Virus record (IMG/VR): IMGVR_UViG_3300025154_000082
Span: 4,296-68,295 of that record
DNA: 64,000 nucleotides
Direction: 5' to 3' (one strand)
Source: a virus
Shown here: piece by piece, positions 2,531 through 53,654 of the stretch
Layout of the letters: each line of letters begins with the position of its first letter
Numbering within the stretch: the first letter of the stretch is position 1
Made by a program: the position numbers and the translations under genes
Notes under the pieces: model-generated
What the model saw: only the letters and a program-made list of their open reading frames with translations
What the model was told of the DNA's origin: nothing
Databases searched by the model: none

Positions 2531-3112
2531 CTATTTGCTTTTAGCAGGTAAATAATTAATTGGATTTAATGAATTAGTTCCATTATTAGTACGAATTTCA
2601 AAATGTACATGTGGGCCTCTGGATAGTAATCCGGTATTTCCAGACAAAGCAATTACATCATTTTGATTTACTTTATCTCCAACGTTGACTAATAATTGAT
2701 TATTATGTGCATACACAGTCTGTTTTCCATCAGAATGATTGATATACACAACATTTCCAATCATTTCATTAAATTCTGCTTTAATTACTATGCCAAAATT
2801 AGAGCAATAAACTTTACTATTTTCCACTACTGCAATATCAATTCCATAATGAAATCCATTTAATGAAGACTCTCTTGGGCCATAAGGACTTGAGATTATT
2901 CCATCTACTGGATAAATATAATTAGAGGAAGAAGAAGTAAGCAATATATAAGTTTTATTAATGACAATGTTTAAGATACTTTTTGCTTCCTCTGTGGTCA
3001 ACTCTCCTTTAGCTGAGACAGGATGAGGTATTGACAATAAAGTTAATAATAAAAGTGAAAATAATAGTTTTTTGCTTGGCTTGGGAATTAATTTTCCTTT
3101 TGTTTTTCTCAT
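2531..3112 (-). CDS. secreted M23-family metallopeptidase (LytM-type peptidoglycan hydrolase)
   Basis: signal peptide MRKTKGKLIPKPSKKLLFSLLLLTLLSIPHPVSA; M23 signature HYGIDIA ... NHSDG ... YAH ... GNTG...GPHVHFE. Confidence 0.75.
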   Translation of the reverse strand: MRKTKGKLIPKPSKKLLFSLLLLTLLSIPHPVSAKGELTTEEAKSILNIVINKTYILLTSSSSNYIYPVDGIISSPYGPRESSLNGFHYGIDIAVVENSKVYCSNFGIVIKAEFNEMIGNVVYINHSDGKQTVYAHNNQLLVNVGDKVNQNDVIALSGNTGLLSRGPHVHFEIRTNNGTNSLNPINYLPAKSK

Positions 3113-3115
3113 AAT

Positions 3116-3328
3116 TCACTCTCTTATAAAATAAGGAGTCAAAACCAAATTCCCTTTATAACATTGATTTGCACTCATATAAACCTTTCTCCAACCTCTC
3201 GTCATTAAATCTTCATAAAATTTTCTTTTATAATTCACAAAATCATCAACACTATCAAATTCCAAATGATTAATAATGTCATGGATTCTACGACCTTTAT
3301 TAACCATTATTGATAATTTAATTCTCAT
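3116..3328 (-). CDS. hypothetical protein
   Basis: 70-aa ORF, no recognisable motif. Confidence 0.3.
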   Translation of the reverse strand: MRIKLSIMVNKGRRIHDIINHLEFDSVDDFVNYKRKFYEDLMTRGWRKVYMSANQCYKGNLVLTPYFIRE

Positions 3329-3361
3329 TTAATAATACCTCCTTAAATTAAAGTACCTTAA

Positions 3362-3660
3362 TCAACTCTTCTCCTCGGATAAATCCTATCTTTATCCTTA
3401 CCATCCCAATCTGGAGATTTTAAAGAAACAAAATTCTCTCCTAAATTAACTCTAATGGCAAATCTCTGATCACATGTCGGACAATAATTTAAAACATGAA
3501 TAAGTTCAGAATCAGTATCTTTTGTGATAATAGATTTTTCGGTAAATGTAGGATATTTAATTGCACATATTTAACAATTAAAAGTTACAGTTTGAAGTCG
3601 TTTTTGTGCTTTCTTATAGAGAGAATTACTTGGTTTTAGGATTGTATATAGTTTTCTCAT
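3362..3660 (-). pseudogene. small zinc-ribbon protein gene interrupted by in-frame TAA (codon 30)
   Basis: strong RBS aagggagg 8 nt before ATG 3660; frame MRKLYTILKPSNSLYKKAQKRLQTVTFNC-stop-ICAIKYPTFTEKSIITKDTDSELIHVLNYCPTCDQRF... continues in frame to 3362; stop lies inside first CxxC of a Cx2C...Cx2C ribbon. Confidence 0.3.
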
Positions 3661-3697
3661 TAATAATTCCTCCCTTATAACTATTCTTACCCCCTAC

Positions 3698-3982
3698 TCA
3701 ATCCAAATCTCTTTCCTCGCTATTCTCAAGCAAATCCATCACAGCATCAAAATAATCAATAACATCCTCACTTGGCTCAATGTCCCATCCACGATCATAA
3801 TAAACTTCACAATCATTATGATTAAACTGTTCTCCACCAAAAATTGCTAATACACTAACCCTTCCACCATCAATTCCAAGTCTAGATGGGGTGTTGTATA
3901 GTTTAGCATTAAATTTAAATCTACCAACTTCCCCTTTAACCCAATTAGAATTATTGTCAAATTTAGTAAAATATGCTTGCAT
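3698..3982 (-). CDS. hypothetical protein
   Basis: 94-aa ORF with acidic C-terminus. Confidence 0.35.
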   Translation of the reverse strand: MQAYFTKFDNNSNWVKGEVGRFKFNAKLYNTPSRLGIDGGRVSVLAIFGGEQFNHNDCEVYYDRGWDIEPSEDVIDYFDAVMDLLENSEERDLD

Positions 3983-4008
3983 TATGATTCCTCCTTAATT
4001 ACTCACTC

Positions 4009-4251
4009 CTACTCCCCTCTACCTCCTCCGCACTCATAAACAAAAATAAAATTAACATAATTTAAACTTATCTTTAAAACATTTTCCACAGATTCTTCTA
4101 ATCCACAAATTTCACTGATATAATTTTTAGCAGAATAATCTCTTTTTGCTCTAATTAAACATTTCGCAACTTCATCAGTGATAGTAAAAACAGAATCGAA
4201 ATCATCATCATTTTGATTACAAATGATGATACATTCAGGTTTTTGTTTCAA
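4009..4251 (-). CDS. hypothetical protein
   Basis: 80-aa ORF. Confidence 0.3.
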   Translation of the reverse strand: MKQKPECIIICNQNDDDFDSVFTITDEVAKCLIRAKRDYSAKNYISEICGLEESVENVLKISLNYVNFIFVYECGGGRGE

Positions 4252-4540
4252 TCATTTCAACTCCTTTGGATGTAATGTAGAATGAATTGGCATTCCTCTC
4301 TTTCCACCCTAGTTTAACCATTCCAAGCATTAAAAGATGATTTAGATTATGTCTGACTCTCAAATGATTGATGTCAATTGCAAGAGATATATTCCTTACA
4401 GTTCTGCTGTTCATTGGATCAGTAAGATTTTCTGAAAATAAATGATGTAGAATATCTATCTCTAATTTTGATAGCATTTTAATTAGTTCACCTCGCTTTG
4501 TTTTAATAATGTGTGATAATGTATCTGATTGTTCAACCAT
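4235..4540 (-). CDS. winged-helix DNA-binding transcriptional regulator (MarR/ArsR-like)
   Basis: 101 aa; helix-turn-helix-like segment LKMLSKLEIDILHHLFSENLTDPMNSRTVRNISLAIDINHLRVRHNLNHLLMLGMV followed by wing. Confidence 0.4.
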   Translation of the reverse strand: MVEQSDTLSHIIKTKRGELIKMLSKLEIDILHHLFSENLTDPMNSRTVRNISLAIDINHLRVRHNLNHLLMLGMVKLGWKERNANSFYITSKGVEMIETKT

Positions 4541-4699
4541 GCTTCATACTCCATCTTATTGATTGATAATTGTCCATTATGTTAGTCAATTTATGGGAAA
4601 TCTTTGGACTTAAATGAAGTTGATTAATCAGACCTATACAATTACCCAAACATTATTTTATATGCTTTAATTTGATTTATTTTGTAAATTAATTTAAGA

Positions 4700-4736
4700 T
4701 TAATAAAAGAAAAGCCCTGATTTCTCAGGACTTAAT
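4700..4736 (-). terminator. intrinsic terminator after partition operon
   Basis: minus-strand RNA GUCCUGA-GAAA-UCAGGGC (one G-U pair) followed by UUUUCUUUUAUU, immediately after stop of 4739..4993. Confidence 0.4.
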
Positions 4737-4738
4737 AC

Positions 4739-4993
4739 TTAATCGTCAAACATATTAAAATTGATTTCTTTTACTGGTTTTGTTTTAGATCGCTCTTCCA
4801 TTCTAATTTCATCTTTTTTAACAAATACATCTATATAGATTTCCTCTTCATCCTCTAACATTACCTTATCTTCACCTTTAAAAAAATAATCATACAAAGC
4901 TCTTCTAATTACTTTGCTTCTCCTATTCTTAGGGATTGCATCAAGAAATGGTTTTAAGATTCTGTCGTCTCTAAAGTTTCTAATTTCCCCCAT
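4739..4993 (-). CDS. small basic DNA-binding adaptor candidate (ParR-like position)
   Basis: 84 aa, overlaps end of ParM-like gene; N-terminal RRSKVIRRALYDYF segment compatible with ribbon-helix-helix; acidic C-terminus. Confidence 0.3.
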   Translation of the reverse strand: MGEIRNFRDDRILKPFLDAIPKNRRSKVIRRALYDYFFKGEDKVMLEDEEEIYIDVFVKKDEIRMEERSKTKPVKEINFNMFDD

Positions 4994-5922
4994 GATAGAT
5001 TCTTCACCAACTTTTCTGCCCCTCTTACATTTGAGAATTGACCTTTATGAAGTATTTTTTGAGGCCAATTAAGAAAATGATATATAGCAGACCCTCCTCC
5101 TCCAGTAACGATTATCTTGTCAATTTTCTTTAAATCATAAAAGGTTGATACATCTGCCTTGATTAATGTTGCAATGTCTGGGTAAAAATTCGCCAATGAG
5201 TCATAACCATCATATAAATCTACTTCATATATTTTTCTATCAGCACGTTTATAGATTTGCCACATTCCATTATTTGTAGTTTTGCAAAGTTCTCTAACTA
5301 TTTCACCTCTGAGTAAATAAATTAGATTTACAGTACCCATTCCTACATCAACGATTAAAGTAACATTAGGAATTTCTTCTTTAGTTTTGCCCTCATCATC
5401 AAGAAAATAATCCATTGACGCACAATATCCCTGTGGGAGACTTTTTATAAGTGTCGGTTTAAAGTTATGAATATGCTCAATATCCCCAATTTTATAATTA
5501 ATATCCATATCATGAGAAAACATATCAATAATTGATTTTTTTTCACTAAAATAAGATTCAAATGGAAAAAGAAATACTACTTTGTCTTCATTTTTATAGT
5601 TACATAAGGTATATTTAGTAAGAATTTTGAATGTTGATTGCTCTGTTTTAATTCCTTCAAGTGAATAATCTTGAGCATACCCATGTAAAATTGCATCTTC
5701 TCCAATGTAATGATTATCAATAACCCACATTTTCTTTTCAGTAAAAGAATCTTGATATTTCCCTATGACAGAAAGAATCTTTAATTCCCTGCCTTTTGAA
5801 TTTAACGCCTTCACATATGAATTACCACAGTCCAAAAACAGCATATTTACTCCTCCTTTGATTTGTAATACAATTGTAAGACATTGTCTTACAATTGTAT
5901 TACAAATTTTATGAAAATACAA
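4954..5922 (-). CDS. actin-like ATPase of the ParM/Alp family (plasmid segregation)
   Basis: actin-fold motifs: phosphate-1 LDCGNSYVKA, phosphate-2 IVDVGMGTVNL, adenosine IVTGGGGSAIY. Confidence 0.6.
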   Translation of the reverse strand: MYFHKICNTIVRQCLTIVLQIKGGVNMLFLDCGNSYVKALNSKGRELKILSVIGKYQDSFTEKKMWVIDNHYIGEDAILHGYAQDYSLEGIKTEQSTFKILTKYTLCNYKNEDKVVFLFPFESYFSEKKSIIDMFSHDMDINYKIGDIEHIHNFKPTLIKSLPQGYCASMDYFLDDEGKTKEEIPNVTLIVDVGMGTVNLIYLLRGEIVRELCKTTNNGMWQIYKRADRKIYEVDLYDGYDSLANFYPDIATLIKADVSTFYDLKKIDKIIVTGGGGSAIYHFLNWPQKILHKGQFSNVRGAEKLVKNLSWGKLETLETTES

Positions 5923-5928
5923 GAGGTT

Positions 5929-7434
5929 TTATGATTCTAATAAATTATCATAATATTTCCAACCAAGAGGTACTCCTGTTTCGGGATGCAATCCGCAATA
6001 CTTTGCTTTATTTCTGCAACATAGAGATATACCTGAATGAAAAATATTATATTTTAATCCAGCCTCTGTTTGAGAATTAAATATTTCTCCAGTAGTAGTG
6101 CATATTATTTTACTAAAAACTCTTTTGCTTTTATATCCACTTTTTCTAGTCTCTTCTTTTGGGTCGTAATCACACCAACCTAGCTCAGTTCCCTGCTTAA
6201 GATATTTTATAACCGTTGATCTACATTTTTTTATTATACTTGATATTTTTAATGTGTTTTTAATATCATTCCACATATTACAAATAGTTTTTACAATGCT
6301 TTTACAAGCATATTCATAACATTTTAACCAGTCTATATCACTTTCTGAAAAATTTAAAAGTTTTGGCAAATCTGATTTCATAATACTGTTTTTAATCCAA
6401 TTCATATTTGAATATCGACAATCTAAGACTATGTAATTATTAATATTATTGTTTCTAGCTAATTGTTCTTTTACTTTGTCATTCTCTTGGACTTCATTTA
6501 ATCTCATTCTCCATGTACTATTAGTTTCTTCATAATGTTGAATTCCTTGACACTCACAAATAATTTCATCAATTTTATTTATGTAAAAGTCATATTTATA
6601 ATTATCGCACCATTTGAAAGTTTTTTCAGATAATTGTGTATTAAAATCATTGCCTAATAATTGTTCAAATACATTAAATAAAAATTTCTCAGGAAAACTT
6701 ATACCGTCCCCACAACATTCACATCCAAATCCTTTTTTCCACAATTTATCCAAACTCTTTTGTTTCTCATGTCCACAATCTGGACATTTCATTGGAATTT
6801 TTTTATTTGAACCAACTGAATATTTATAAGCATCTTCTTTATTAACTAAAAATTTAATAAGTTCTTGATGCGTAACTGAAATTGTATTACACATAATACA
6901 ATCAAGACTTATGGTAGATCCTTTTTTTATTGTTGTATAAGTAAAACGAGCAATACTTTTTAATTCGGATTTATGTTCTGGATGATCTAAGCATTTAAAC
7001 CAGTAGCCCTTATTATTAAAACCTACCGAACCATAACTTACATATTTAGGACTTATTATATTGCCATTTTCGTCAATATTTAAACTATAATCCCAACGTG
7101 ATAATATCCAATCAGCCAATTCTTTAGAGAGATGGGTATAGCACCACTCATAAAAAGAAATATAATTTTTGTGTCCAGTTTGAGAACATTTATGACAATA
7201 ATATCTTCCATCTTCTTTTACATATTTCTTGTAATTAAGCCATTTCATAGGTTTTAAATATTCTTTACATCCATCACATTGAACGTCAACTATAGCACTA
7301 GATGCATGTGTTAAATCTTCTACTTTTACTTTAAATTCCTCTCCAAGTTTAGTAAAGGCAAATCCTTTATCTATGTACCACTTTTTACTACTAAAATGCC
7401 ACTTCATTATTACCTCTTTAGTTATTAATCCCAC
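5929..7434 (-). CDS. zinc-ribbon-repeat / DUF559(Vsr-like) endonuclease-family protein with C-terminal homing-endonuclease-type HTH
   Basis: repeated W-D-x-x-N ... YWFKC..H / CxxC zinc-ribbon modules; core DFYINKIDEIICECQGIQH (DUF559/Vsr-like PD-(D/E)xK pattern); C-terminus GEIFNSQTEAGLKYNIFHSGISLCCRNKAK..GWKY resembles NUMOD-like HTH tails of phage HNH/GIY homing endonucleases; paralog of 52374..53654. Confidence 0.5.
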   Translation of the reverse strand: MGLITKEVIMKWHFSSKKWYIDKGFAFTKLGEEFKVKVEDLTHASSAIVDVQCDGCKEYLKPMKWLNYKKYVKEDGRYYCHKCSQTGHKNYISFYEWCYTHLSKELADWILSRWDYSLNIDENGNIISPKYVSYGSVGFNNKGYWFKCLDHPEHKSELKSIARFTYTTIKKGSTISLDCIMCNTISVTHQELIKFLVNKEDAYKYSVGSNKKIPMKCPDCGHEKQKSLDKLWKKGFGCECCGDGISFPEKFLFNVFEQLLGNDFNTQLSEKTFKWCDNYKYDFYINKIDEIICECQGIQHYEETNSTWRMRLNEVQENDKVKEQLARNNNINNYIVLDCRYSNMNWIKNSIMKSDLPKLLNFSESDIDWLKCYEYACKSIVKTICNMWNDIKNTLKISSIIKKCRSTVIKYLKQGTELGWCDYDPKEETRKSGYKSKRVFSKIICTTTGEIFNSQTEAGLKYNIFHSGISLCCRNKAKYCGLHPETGVPLGWKYYDNLLES

Positions 7435-7483
7435 AATCTAATCCTCCTCTTTCTATAAATTATTATATTTCTCCCTACTTAAT

Positions 7484-7512
7484 ATTATAGCATAAATAGT
7501 AAATCATGTCAA
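7484..7512 (-). promoter_or_regulatory. consensus sigma-A promoter (TTGACA-17-TATAAT) for partition operon
   Basis: minus-strand TTGACA at 7507-7512, 17-nt spacer, TATAAT at 7484-7489; RBS aggagg at 7443-7451 precedes start 7434. Confidence 0.55.
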
Positions 7513-7689
7513 CATATATTTATTTTATAATTTAATAATTTTCTCTATCCCTTTCAGTGTTGTCCGGCCCAAACACTTATCAACATGTGTATAAAATTTT
7601 AGAAACTTATACACAGCCTTGTCGATTTGTAGTATAATGTATTAACATGTCCAACCCATATTAATGTTAATTTTTAGCAAAAGAATAAT

Positions 7690-7762
7690 AGCAAAAACTC
7701 CTTGAAGTGCTAGTTTGGTCGCGAACACTTCAAGGAGCCACAGCAGAGGTTGTTTTCGTTTG
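7690..7762 (-). ncRNA. candidate ~70-nt antisense countertranscript (ctRNA) in rep leader
   Basis: minus-strand promoter at 7770-7798; perfect 12-bp stem 7698-7709/7726-7737 (ctccttgaagtg / cacttcaaggag) with 16-nt loop; on minus strand hairpin is followed by UUUUUGCUAUUAUUCUUUU. Confidence 0.4.
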
Positions 7763-7769
7763 TATTTTT

Positions 7770-7798
7770 ATTATAACAAAAAGAAAACCTTCTGTCTA
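7770..7798 (-). promoter_or_regulatory. promoter for antisense RNA (TAGACA-17-TATAAT)
   Basis: minus-strand -35 TAGACA at 7793-7798, 17-nt spacer, -10 TATAAT at 7770-7775. Confidence 0.4.
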
Positions 7799-7842
7799 GT
7801 GTGTTTTTGTTGTTGGCAAAACATGGAGAGAAGGTTTTTATT

Positions 7843-8772
7843 ATGAATATGATTAGAGATCCAAAGAAGTTAAGAAGAGTTCCAATCAAAGAAGAATTAG
7901 TTGAAATTACAGGTGATTACATTAAGGCAGTTATTTTGCAACAATTTATTTACTGGTCAGAAAGAACCAAAGATTATGACCAATTTGTTTTAGAAGAAAA
8001 GTTTCAGGCCGAAAGGTGTGGATATGAATACAAGGCAGAATTGAAAAACGGATGGATATTTAAGAGTTCTGAACAACTATCAGAAGAAACTATGCTTAGA
8101 TTAAAACATACCGCAATGCGTACACATATTAAGGTATTAGTGGATAAGGGTTTTCTATCTGAGAGAACTAATCCTCTTGATAAACGGGATAGAACCATAC
8201 AATATCGTGTGAACATTTTAGCAATACAACTTGATCTACTAGAACATAACTATGTCTTAGATGGATATTCTAGTCCAATTAATTTTGAAACTCTTATGGA
8301 AGTTATCCACAAGAAAAAGCAATCTCGGAATGCGGAAATGCAAACATCATTAAATGGAAATGCTTCATCAGAATGTGAGATTGCACAGCCGGAAAACAAT
8401 AATGGCATAGAATATGGGGTTGAAGACATAATTGCATTCTCGGAAAACGGAAATGCATCTCCGCAAATATGCAATGCAACTAGCGAAAACATGCAAGCAT
8501 TACCAGAGACTACTTACAGAGATATATATCTTATTGATATTAATCGCGTGTGGGAAGAGGTTGTGGATAACTTGAGAAAGAAATTGTCTCCTGCTTCTCT
8601 GTCTGCTTGGATATTACCCATCATACCAGAAATACAGGAGACAAAGTTAATACTTAATTGTTCAAGTCAATTTGCTGTGGATTGGATAGAGGGAAAATAT
8701 CTTAGTATGATTGTTAATTGTTTGCCTGAAAATAGTGGAATTAAGGATGTTGTTGTATGTGAAAGTTCTTAA
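7843..8772 (+). CDS. RepA_N-like plasmid/phage replication initiator (winged-helix N-terminus)
   Basis: RBS ggagagaagg before ATG 7843 (ORF track starts upstream at 7801); N-terminal IKAVILQQFIYWSERT ... GWIFKSSEQLSEETMLRLKHTAMRTHIKVLVDKGFLSERT ... IQYRVNI resembles RepA_N wHTH; one of few plus-strand genes; ori-like repeats lie within its central region. Confidence 0.5.
   Translation: MNMIRDPKKLRRVPIKEELVEITGDYIKAVILQQFIYWSERTKDYDQFVLEEKFQAERCGYEYKAELKNGWIFKSSEQLSEETMLRLKHTAMRTHIKVLVDKGFLSERTNPLDKRDRTIQYRVNILAIQLDLLEHNYVLDGYSSPINFETLMEVIHKKKQSRNAEMQTSLNGNASSECEIAQPENNNGIEYGVEDIIAFSENGNASPQICNATSENMQALPETTYRDIYLIDINRVWEEVVDNLRKKLSPASLSAWILPIIPEIQETKLILNCSSQFAVDWIEGKYLSMIVNCLPENSGIKDVVVCESS
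8303..8571. other. putative origin of replication inside rep gene (DnaA boxes + iteron-like direct repeats + AT-rich tract)
   Basis: perfect DnaA box ttatccaca at 8303-8311 and inverted perfect box tgtggataa at 8562-8570; 20-bp direct repeat tctcggaatgcggaaatgca (8323-8342) / tctcggaaaacggaaatgca (8438-8457) in different reading frames plus ggaaatgc at 8356-8363; AT tract gatatatatcttattgatattaat 8521-8544. Confidence 0.4.
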
Positions 8773-8864
8773 AGGTTTTTCAGGAGAAAATGATTGGTAA
8801 ATATTTATGGTTTTATTTGTATTAATTTAGTAGTATTATGTAGCAAAAAGAAAGTTAGTGCAGA

Positions 8865-9647
8865 ATGTTCGACTATGAACAAGAATCAGAAATTGAGAAA
8901 ATGCTTAAAGATGAAATCAGAGAGCAAAAGCGAACTGGCAATGGAATTCATGGTCGAGCATTAAGATTAAGAAAACACGAAACAGTTAGAACCCCTTCAG
9001 AATCTTTAGTAGGAATAGAAAGATTGAAAATTTATGCACCTTCTGTAATTCACTCAACAACGATTGGAGAAATGAAAATGACTGAACTTCTAGAAAAGAT
9101 TAAATTAGGTGAAATTCCATCTAAGTCAGAATTTGAAGCATTAGATTTTGAGAGTAATCAAAAAGCTTTAGCTGAATTGAGAAGATTACACACTAATCAT
9201 GAAATTATGAAAAGTTGGAAATGTTCGTCTACATCTCTTAGTAATTTCTTCGCAGAAATGCAAGTTGCAAAAATTAAAGGTGGAGAAATATTGATTGGAA
9301 AGTCTGCTGTTGATTTTTTAAATAAAGGAAGAATTACAAGAGGATTGCCTAAAATTGGTGAAGATAGTAATCAGGAGAAAATTAAAAGGCCATATAATAG
9401 GGTCGCTCCTATAGATAATTCTAAAGAAATTCTGAGTGAAAATATTATTCCCACTCAGAATGTAGATTCAATTTTTATTAATCAAAAAGAAACCATAATT
9501 GAGAATAACTATTTAATCAATGTTAATAGAAAATTTAATACTAGGAACTTGGCTTCTTTTTTGGAAAGGTTAACTCTATTTCTCAGTGAAGAGAATCAGG
9601 AATTTTTAGTTGAAATTAGAGTTATTGAGGTTGGGAGTAAAAGGTAG
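8865..9647 (+). CDS. hypothetical protein co-transcribed with rep (replication-associated?)
   Basis: 260-aa plus-strand ORF immediately downstream of rep; no clear motif. Confidence 0.35.
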   Translation: MFDYEQESEIEKMLKDEIREQKRTGNGIHGRALRLRKHETVRTPSESLVGIERLKIYAPSVIHSTTIGEMKMTELLEKIKLGEIPSKSEFEALDFESNQKALAELRRLHTNHEIMKSWKCSSTSLSNFFAEMQVAKIKGGEILIGKSAVDFLNKGRITRGLPKIGEDSNQEKIKRPYNRVAPIDNSKEILSENIIPTQNVDSIFINQKETIIENNYLINVNRKFNTRNLASFLERLTLFLSEENQEFLVEIRVIEVGSKR

Positions 9648-52373: not shown

Positions 52374-53654
52374 TTACTTTACACTTATTCCTTCAATAGT
52401 TTTACTTAATATTTCTTCAATTCTATCAAATTCATAATACCAAATCTCAAGAAAATTATACTCTTTTTCTAAAGCGTATTCTTTCTTTCGTCTGTCATGT
52501 TCGACTTGTTTTTCAAAGTCTTTAATTGATTTATGTATTCCTTTTACAAATCTTTCATGCATTTCACCTTGATATTCTATAAGTAAATTATATTGAGATA
52601 AATAAAAATCATAAGATAATAAACATCCACCTAGACCAATTAGTCCTTCAAATGTTTTTTGTGGTATGTAATTTATTTCTTTGTCGAATAATTTCTTGCC
52701 AACTTCAATTTCACCTATTGAACATTGACATTCTGGACATCTAAAATCACGCGAATTAGAACCATCAATGTTTCTCTTATAGTCTTTATGTTTACCGTCT
52801 TTACATTTCCACCAAACTTCTTTACCACTACGAGGAGCATATTCGTATGGAGATTTTTTATTTTTATTAGACCATAAATTTAAAACTTCAGGATGTATAA
52901 TACCTAAACTATCTAATTTATGCAGTATATGATTATTATTACAGTATGAACATCTTCTATCATTATAAAAATTACATGGTGACACATCATAACTCCCATG
53001 GTGTTCTTTATCTTGGCATTTAATCCATACTTTATTTCTTGCACATTTATCAATCTTCCAAGGATTAACAGTGTTTTTATCATGATCCCAATACTTTTCT
53101 AAAAAATCTTCTCCTAGATTATCTACTCCCCATTGTGCAAACGAATTACATTGTTTGCATTTTATAGATCCTTCCTGTCCACCAGTAAAAGCATTAATAT
53201 TCTTTAATTCACTATTATGTAAACTTCTTGGGCATTTAAAATAATGTTTTTTATTTGTAGCAAAACCTATTTCATTTGGGTTCTTTTTATTTAACTCATA
53301 GTCCCATCTGTCAAGAATGTCTTGTCGATTATTTTCAATACACCATTGTTCAAAAGATTTGCCATTCTTTAATTTTGATATTCTAAATCTTTCCTGACCG
53401 CATTTTAGACAATAATATTTTCCATCTTCCTTCATTATTCTTTTATAACTATGCCATATTACAGGTTTGGTAATTGGAGTAGTACATTCTTTGCAATCAC
53501 ATTTGACGTTTACTTCCACAGGACTACCATCTGTCAAATCTTCCACTTTAACTTCAAATTCGTCACCCATCTTAGTATAAACATAACCCTTACTTTTATA
53601 CCACTTTATATTGTTTGAATTCCACCTAATAATAACATTTTTAGTTAATAACAT
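52374..53654 (-). CDS. zinc-ribbon-repeat + C-terminal DUF559/Vsr-like PD-(D/E)xK endonuclease
   Basis: three W-D-x-x-N...KC..H...C..C ribbon repeats; C-terminus SYDFYLSQYNLLIEYQGEMHERF...DRRKKEYALEKEYNFLEIWYYEF matches DUF559 pattern DFYLP..LaIEvDG..H; N-terminus paralogous to 5929..7434. Confidence 0.5.
   Translation of the reverse strand: MLLTKNVIIRWNSNNIKWYKSKGYVYTKMGDEFEVKVEDLTDGSPVEVNVKCDCKECTTPITKPVIWHSYKRIMKEDGKYYCLKCGQERFRISKLKNGKSFEQWCIENNRQDILDRWDYELNKKNPNEIGFATNKKHYFKCPRSLHNSELKNINAFTGGQEGSIKCKQCNSFAQWGVDNLGEDFLEKYWDHDKNTVNPWKIDKCARNKVWIKCQDKEHHGSYDVSPCNFYNDRRCSYCNNNHILHKLDSLGIIHPEVLNLWSNKNKKSPYEYAPRSGKEVWWKCKDGKHKDYKRNIDGSNSRDFRCPECQCSIGEIEVGKKLFDKEINYIPQKTFEGLIGLGGCLLSYDFYLSQYNLLIEYQGEMHERFVKGIHKSIKDFEKQVEHDRRKKEYALEKEYNFLEIWYYEFDRIEEILSKTIEGISVK

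Follow-up and report, generated by a model that had tools for sequence, protein, structure and literature searches.

Can a large phage-like genome carry a replication origin inside the coding sequence of an initiator gene? The question is raised by rep in a 64,000-nucleotide (nt) stretch of viral DNA (IMG/VR record IMGVR_UViG_3300025154_000082, positions 4,296 to 68,295; hereafter the window, numbered from its first letter), part of a 28% G+C phage-like genome with its own DNA polymerase, DnaB-like helicase, ribonucleotide reductase, and ThyX. An initial annotation had noticed two DnaA boxes flanking a direct repeat within rep and had proposed an origin of the RepA_N type. Our analysis indicates that the segment at 8300-8573 is probably a cis-acting, iteron-type replication origin, located where rep encodes a disordered linker between the two domains of Rep. 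The positions of both boxes, the 250 nt that separate them, and the sites and differing reading frames of the 20-nt repeat are all as the annotation gave them.

The two boxes (TTATCCACA and, as written on the plus strand, TGTGGATAA) are the sole perfect DnaA boxes within the window. Each forms the core of one arm of a 13-nt perfect inverted repeat (AAGTTATCCACAA at 8300-8312 and TTGTGGATAACTT at 8561-8573), which is not significant by itself because, by our own estimate, a few such repeats with arms within 300 nt are expected per window by chance. The box pair had been described as far above chance. This does not hold for the number of boxes, as 1.15 are expected and 30 of 100 shuffled sequences reach two, but it does hold for their proximity: two perfect boxes less than 300 bp apart occur in 0.35% of random 64-kb sequences of the same composition. 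When one mismatch is allowed, seven boxes fall within 1 kb (7577-8570; P = 0.0006). Both boxes are written in rare codons, with ATC (10% of Ile codons) and CAC (13.5% of His codons) in box 1 and GTG (9.7% of Val codons) in box 2. Given the encoded amino acids, the probability of finding the box is 0.006 for box 1 and 0.036 for box 2 (joint probability, ~2e-4). Further, box 2 encodes the tripeptide VDN, which is unconserved in the compared DnaA domain I sequences (Bacillus subtilis DnaA and a box-less clade of Rep proteins), suggesting that this peptide is dictated by the DNA.

We compared 16 full-length rep genes, taken from viral and metagenomic contigs and ranging in protein identity from 93% down to 40%, and built a codon alignment of the 10 closest homologs, which share 76-93% nucleotide identity with the window rep. 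Among codons whose amino acid is invariant, synonymous variation is seen in 1 of 32 between the boxes (codons 154-243) versus 83 of 120 outside them (Fisher p = 2.5e-12). Third-position diversity is 0.138 between the boxes versus 0.335 in the region encoding the N-terminal domain (N-domain), and first- and second-position diversity is higher between the boxes. The ratio of third- to first/second-position diversity is consequently 1.09 versus 4.14, and the three-base periodicity of variation is lost between the boxes. At the edges of this zone, codons 151 and 244 vary, and the only amino-acid-invariant codon that varies within 154-243 is Ala174; the limits of constraint match the boxes to within three codons. 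No indels are found between the boxes among the 10 close genes, though the encoded peptide is disordered, and box 1 lies at +461 in all close homologs. The box-less clade gives the same signature independently, with a diversity ratio of 1.19 in the linker versus 5.72 in the N-domain. As read from these alignments, the pattern is the one expected for selection on a DNA element, not on the peptide.

Most close homologs have perfect copies of both boxes, as do two more distant ones, L031 (69% identity) and L032 (54%). Box 1 is one mismatch off in the close homolog L011 (TTATCAACA) and in L027 (52%; TTATCCAAA), where box 2 is perfect, and L028 (42%) has lost box 1 and retains a perfect box 2. In a further homolog, L014 (1752-2691), the rep frame stops after 151 codons and box 1 lies at +486, displaced by 25 nt; this copy may be a pseudogene or an assembly error.

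Between the boxes, the 20-nt direct repeat reads tctcggaatgcggaaatgca at 8323-8342 and tctcggaaaacggaaatgca at 8438-8457. The two copies start 115 nt apart (115 mod 3 = 1) and therefore lie in different frames, being translated as S-R-N-A-E-M-Q and (F)-S-E-N-G-N-A. With up to three mismatches allowed, the 19-mer CTCGGAANNCGGAAATGCA is found in the 64 kb at just these two sites (0.05 expected). The extra ggaaatgc(a) copies reported in the initial annotation are also present: three of the five window copies of GGAAATGC fall in the element, at 8334, 8356, and 8449. The whole linker is composed of 21- to 22-nt units beginning GCA, with starts at 8319, 8340, 8362, and 8383 and, after a 30-nt spacer, at 8434, 8455, 8476, and 8497. 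The frame shift between the iteron copies arises because the unit at 8340-8361 is 22 nt long. A shift of 21 nt gives the highest autocorrelation in the window linker (0.43 versus a mean of 0.28), and it is the top peak (in L028, the second) in 10 of 10 family members that were examined, despite differences in iteron sequence. In several relatives the tandem 21-mers are cleaner: L027 has five or six copies of GCAAACTCGGAATCCGAGAAT, the L030 clade has TCGGAAAACGAGNTTCGA, a complete 136-kb plasmid of B. subtilis (L038) has about six copies of TCGAAACTTCAAAATGAAGTA, and a Paenibacillaceae metagenome-assembled genome (L036) has such an array as well.

The second strong iteron lies within the least variable 45-nt block of rep (8428-8472; nucleotide diversity, 0.073). 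Iteron codons are rare (TCG, 4.3%; CGG, 1.3%), and in every clade the (C)TCGGAA motif is read in two ways, as 'TCT CGG AA' and as 'TCG GAA'. The first iteron copy is 1 nt out of step with the others in every clade, giving one DNA motif in two frames. Within the window, the iteron is confined to the rep locus. The earlier argument that the repeat is conserved as DNA, and is not a protein repeat, is thus borne out by the synonymous-site analysis, the rare codons, the use of two frames in every clade, and the persistence of the boxes down to 52-54% identity.

Downstream of the iterons, the order of elements is GCA(T/A)TACCAGAGACTAC, an AT-rich tract, 17 nt of higher G+C content, and box 2. The AT tract had been noted before, and 8520-8543 is indeed the lowest-GC 24-mer of the rep coding sequence (3 G+C); a TATCTTATTAAT-like core within it is retained by all clades. 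The 12-mer CCAGAGACTAC, with at most one mismatch, is present in at least one copy, in a constant place and frame, at nearly every locus examined, including homologs of 25-33% identity with different C-terminal domains as well as the Bacillus and Vagococcus plasmids, and relatives repeat it 2-4 times. Distant relatives and complete Bacillus and Vagococcus plasmids thereby share the order seen in the window, with 21-nt iterons first, the 12-mer next, and an AT tract last. Because its frame is constant (P/T-E-T-T), DNA-level and peptide-level selection are inseparable for the 12-mer. The motif CAGAGACTAC, often present as tandem 12-mers that encode (P/T)ETT, is found after the iterons in nearly all N-domain homologs (linkers of L017, L020, L023-L026, L030, L035, L036, L038, and L039), whatever their C-terminal domain or host (Desulfosporosinus, Paenibacillaceae, Bacillus, Vagococcus). 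This motif might be functional as DNA or as peptide.

AlphaFold2 gives a confident model for both Rep domains and predicts that the residues between them are disordered (Table 1), so that the iterons fill exactly the linker-encoding DNA. The N-terminal ~146 residues have solely weak Pfam matches (RP-C, MarR) and match the PHROG families 'replication initiation O-like' (E 9e-9 to 6e-3) and 'DnaD-like helicase loader' (E 1.5e-10). The C-terminal domain is DnaA_N (PF11638; 45.2 bits versus a curated cut-off of 24.6) and matches the structure of B. subtilis DnaA domain I (4TPS; E 2.7e-13). In that domain, Trp27 and Phe49 are needed for DnaD recruitment (PMC10201431), and their equivalents are kept in Rep as W256 and F277. 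This retention suggests that Rep may recruit the host loader as DnaA does, or may pair with box-bound DnaA. Among homologs of the N-domain, the C-terminal part is DnaA_N, Phg_2220_C, DnaB_2, DUF6017, or no recognised domain. Literature searches on PF11638/DnaA_N in plasmid or phage initiators returned no description of this architecture. Separately, L028 carries tandem genes (2679-3710 and 4001-4921) that both end in DnaA_N and differ in their N-terminal domains; they adjoin genes for an actin-like partition protein, a family A DNA polymerase, and a primase-helicase.

Table 1. Features of the rep locus and of Rep (window coordinates; aa, amino acid residues of Rep; ORF, open reading frame)
Feature	Position	Strand	Description
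Upstream DnaA-box cluster	7577..7615		Three one-mismatch boxes: TTATCAACA at 7577 (+), TTATACACA at 7586 (-), TTATACACA at 7607 (+)
Candidate rep promoter	7610..7638	+	TACACA-17-TATAAT; 10/12 matches; invariant across ten aligned upstream regions
Predicted countertranscript	7691..7798	-	About 70 nt, antisense to rep leader; promoter and terminator hairpin
Leader hairpin	7777..7845	+	AAAGAAAACCUUCU paired with Shine-Dalgarno and start region (GGAGAGAAGGUUUUU...AUG); inverted repeat, minimum-energy folds, z = -4.4
rep	7843..8772	+	ORF of 309 aa; origin-like element embedded in its coding sequence
DnaA box 1, TTATCCACA	8303..8311	+	Perfect consensus; left edge of constrained zone; encoded GTT ATC CAC
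Iteron 1, GCAATCTCGGAATGCGGAAAT	8319..8339	+	Strong; S-R-N frame; 32 bits (position-weight matrix), top match in 64 kb
Degenerate units (three, 21-22 nt)	8340..8403	+	Each starting GC(A/T); unit 8383-8403, 13.8 bits
Iteron 2, GCATTCTCGGAAAACGGAAAT	8434..8454	+	Strong; S-E-N frame; 27.4 bits
Degenerate units (two more, 21 nt)	8455..8496	+	Assigned by register
GCATTACCAGAGACTAC	8497..8513	+	Conserved; encodes A-L-P-E-T-T
AT-rich tract	8520..8544		Candidate DNA-unwinding element; lowest GC in coding sequence
DnaA box 2, TGTGGATAA (as on + strand)	8562..8570	-	Perfect consensus; right edge of constrained zone; encoded (GT)T GTG GAT AA(C)
Rep N-terminal winged-helix domain	about aa 10-146		Fold prediction and weak profile matches
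Rep disordered linker	about aa 160-230		AlphaFold2
Rep C-terminal DnaA domain I	aa 235-294		Profile and PDB match
Actin-like partition gene	4954-5922		Profile matches

The comparison with RepA_N replicons made in the initial annotation stands for the layout and fails for the family. None of 55 family members has RepA_N (PF06970) among its profile matches at E <= 1, and the Rep family profile matches no RepA_N structure in the PDB; with both searches negative, we rejected RepA_N membership of Rep. As Rep lies outside detectable RepA_N, the analogy concerns how the element works rather than family. In pSK41, the Rep boxes occupy a dispensable central linker of rep and are bound by the N-terminal winged-helix domain, the C-terminal domain is exchangeable, and an antisense RNA of about 83 nt acts against the leader (PMC5703833). 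The window locus resembles these theta replicons (which include pAD1 and pLS32) in its N-terminal winged helix, in its central repeats within the linker-encoding segment of rep (here seen in silico), and in a C-terminal domain that is exchangeable or host-specific. A further likeness, predicted here, is an antisense RNA (about 70-83 nt) directed at the rep leader, together with a hairpin at the translation start. In contrast to the pSK41 type, the window N-domain is unrecognised by PF06970, the C-terminal domain is DnaA domain I and not a DnaD-like primase-binding domain, the repeat array is bounded by consensus DnaA boxes, and the replicon is part of a large phage-like genome. pBMB165 was set aside as a comparison because it has a pAMbeta1-type replicon.

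In lambda, the origin likewise lies within the initiator gene, O; it consists of four iterons and then an AT-rich region, and transcription passes through it (PMC5043065). The window N-domain matches the 'O-like' PHROG families cited above, a likeness by family label. In lambda, however, the iterons are inverted repeats of 19 bp to which O dimers bind, DnaA boxes are missing from ori-lambda, and O recruits the helicase via P, whereas the window Rep ends in a copy of DnaA domain I. It is on this likeness of organisation to both pSK41-type replicons and lambda that we read 8300-8573 as a probable replicon origin. The iteron plasmid origins of P1 (oriR), F, RK2, and pSC101 also have iterons bound by Rep, an AT-rich unwinding element, and DnaA boxes where the iteron array ends (binding and unwinding being predicted in the window). 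Park and Chattoraj reportedly described, in 2001, a P1 oriR with DnaA boxes at both ends. These plasmid origins differ in being intergenic, and their Reps belong to the Rep_3 family and have no DnaA domain. In P1 and F, DnaA aids Rep in origin opening (PMC5043065). Compared with B. subtilis oriC and DnaA, the window Rep has no AAA+ domain or domain IV, its equivalent of Thr26 is Ala, and the locus has no DnaA-trios.

The 270 nt upstream of rep are conserved above the synonymous sites of rep itself. The first two boxes of the upstream DnaA-box cluster form a perfect head-to-head pair, TTATCCACATGTGGATAA, in several relatives, and the third overlaps the -35 hexamer of the candidate rep promoter. 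On the opposite strand, a promoter at 7798 to 7770 (TAGACA-17-TGnTATAAT; 11/12 matches plus the TG motif) and a terminator hairpin at 7737-7698 (12-nt perfect stem, followed by a U-run at 7697-7693; fold z = -4.8) delimit the predicted countertranscript, a region that is highly conserved in the upstream alignment. An intrinsic-terminator scan missed this hairpin because its 16-nt loop exceeds the limit of the scanner. Rfam gives no credible match in 7300-9000. Leader folds include no alternative pairing that would release the ribosome-binding site. Together, the features at 7691-7798 on the minus strand and 7610-7845 on the plus strand are predicted to form a copy-control module.

The loop at 7698-7737 varies among relatives. 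It reads CTAGTTTGGTCGCGAA in the window and in L013 and is the exact reverse complement, TTCGCGACCAAACTAG, in L001, L005, L007, L008, L009, and L012; L010 and L011 have this reverse complement with one or two changes. By alignment, the difference is a small inversion between the stem arms. Since the hairpin comprises the terminator and loop of the predicted antisense RNA, such a flip swaps the sense and antisense loop sequences and, speculatively, might alter incompatibility specificity.

If 8300-8573 is an origin, the N-terminal winged-helix domain of Rep would bind the 21-bp iterons in its own gene, both the strong copies at 8319 and 8434 and the degenerate ones. Host DnaA would bind the two inverted consensus boxes that flank the array and maybe also the weaker boxes about 700 bp upstream, which might act through looping. 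The duplex is predicted to open at the AT-rich tract (8520-8544), which adjoins the family-wide CCAGAGACTAC element. The C-terminal copy of DnaA domain I would recruit the helicase-loading machinery, either through direct contact with the host helicase or its DnaD-type loader, the route taken by DnaA domain I, or through pairing with the domain I of DnaA bound at the boxes. The supply of Rep may be set by the promoter that overlaps a DnaA-like box and by the antisense RNA against the leader.

Several observations weigh against an origin of this kind. Only two iterons are strong, the rest being degenerate, with one intermediate at ~14 bits. No DnaA-trio array (3'-GAT-5' type) beyond chance is found beside either box; the longest in-phase trio run is three (8311-8319), equal to the level in shuffled sequences, and we rejected a basal unwinding system of DnaA box plus DnaA-trios on this ground. 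GC skew has no switch at the rep locus; it follows gene orientation and is uninformative. The phage has genes for a polymerase and a DnaB-like helicase of its own, and its lytic replication may start from another origin. The conserved intergenic DnaA-box cluster could be part of the true origin, or could be that origin. Lastly, both DnaA boxes are absent from the clade at ~40% identity, in which iterons, 12-mer, and AT tract are all retained. The initial annotation had made the presence of repeats and boxes in relatives a test of its proposal: the repeats recur in all clades, and the boxes extend to 52-54% identity (box 2 to 42%) and are absent from the deepest clade. DnaA is therefore no universal requirement for this origin type, and on these comparisons the boxes are best read as a clade-specific accessory to an intragenic iteron origin. 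On the other side of the balance, partition genes (for an actin-like protein or ParA) adjoin rep in relatives.

The repeats and boxes within rep might instead serve as a control locus that titrates or handcuffs the initiator, determines incompatibility, or mediates autoregulation, with initiation in the upstream intergenic region (7435-7842) and its own DnaA-box cluster. Relatives conserve a DnaA-box pair and a third box at -280 to -235, perfect in several, and the intergenic region is strongly conserved and has a higher AT content. Iteron plasmids often have extra control iterons outside the origin, such as P1 incA and F incC, which also fits such a role. However, the window has only degenerate copies of the upstream boxes, and L032, L027, L028, and the deeper clades have none, whereas the intragenic iterons, 12-mer, and AT tract are universal. 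The promoter, antisense RNA, and leader hairpin already explain the conserved block upstream of rep, in which there is no copy of the iteron. We consider it unlikely that the intragenic segment is a control locus and favor its being the origin.

It is much less likely that the constraint comes from an RNA feature, namely an mRNA domain closed by the 13-nt inverted repeat, or from an antisense ORF at 8250-8492. The fold of 8295-8580 has z = -3.5, with the 13-nt arms as its closing stem, and the antisense frame is open for 87-116 codons in close homologs. The changes in the arms are uncompensated, however: box 1 is altered in L011 and L027 and lost in L028, and box 2 is perfect in all three. A long-range RNA stem of the 13-nt arms was judged unlikely on this absence of compensatory changes; moreover, the arms hold the exact DnaA consensus, further DnaA boxes lie upstream, and Rfam has no match. 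The antisense ORF was rejected, as it is closed in the mid-distance homologs L032, L027, and L028 (42-57 codons), and its wobble position coincides with that of the sense frame, so that it cannot explain the reduced third-position variation. Least credible of all is that the DNA has no function, in which case the linker would be a protein repeat of low complexity and the boxes would have arisen by chance from the peptide sequence. Distant relatives do have 7-residue peptide repeats (e.g., SENEVRD / SENELRT) and two perfect boxes per 64 kb are unremarkable as a count, but the synonymous suppression, rare codons, two-frame motif, fixed spacing, and exact coincidence of the boxes with the edges of constraint all speak against it.

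An intragenic origin at 8300-8573 would extend an established principle. That an origin can lie in the initiator gene is known from lambda and the RepA_N plasmids. What is new is not this principle but the initiator family, its fusion with DnaA domain I, and the presence of boxes embedded in coding sequence. Beyond the initial annotation, the present analysis adds the C-terminal DnaA domain I, the 21-nt linker register, the CCAGAGACTAC element, the upstream box cluster, promoter, and antisense RNA, and the dispensability of the boxes in the deeper clade. More tentatively, and with somewhat less than even confidence, we propose that the locus is the founding case of an uncharacterised initiator superfamily of Bacillota phages, plasmids, and phage-plasmids. 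Its origin would always lie in the disordered linker of the initiator and consist of lineage-specific 21-bp iterons, the near-universal CCAGAGACTAC 12-mer, and an AT tract. The window clade would add the DnaA domain I fusion and two rare-codon edge boxes, so that the initiator could plug into host DnaA/DnaD helicase loading by mimicking the recruitment surface or by pairing with box-bound DnaA.

Plasmid homologs, including those on 135-155-kb Bacillus and Vagococcus plasmids, are annotated 'hypothetical protein', with no replicon type in the database. If the family and its built-in origin were recognised, such plasmids and large low-GC phage-plasmids could be assigned to a replicon type, and vector construction would gain a minimal replicon. 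An initiator that has DnaA domain I alone beside coding-embedded boxes would be a natural experiment on the role of that domain (DnaD/helicase recruitment or DnaA bridging), and the locus offers a clear case of a cis-element overriding codon choice within a gene. Nucleotide and protein searches of the phage collection returned no match, and the sole match in the plasmid nucleotide search is a 96-nt one to a Priestia 'DnaD domain protein'.

Turning to the surrounding genes, the actin-like partition gene suggests a phage-plasmid lifestyle. Nearly all genes in the window are on the minus strand, with rep and the ORF at 8865-9647 as exceptions, and the GC skew is negative throughout. If replication ran unidirectionally leftward from the rep locus, it would proceed in the same direction as almost all transcription. 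The 260-aa ORF downstream of rep (8865-9647, plus strand) has no Pfam, PHROG, or NCBIfam match and is absent from all fetched relatives, though other downstream genes are common to them. Two HNH or homing-endonuclease-like genes are present, at 5929-7434 and 52374-53654, both on the minus strand. The endonuclease-like gene beside rep is mobile among relatives: L007 has a 49%-identical copy downstream of rep, not upstream.

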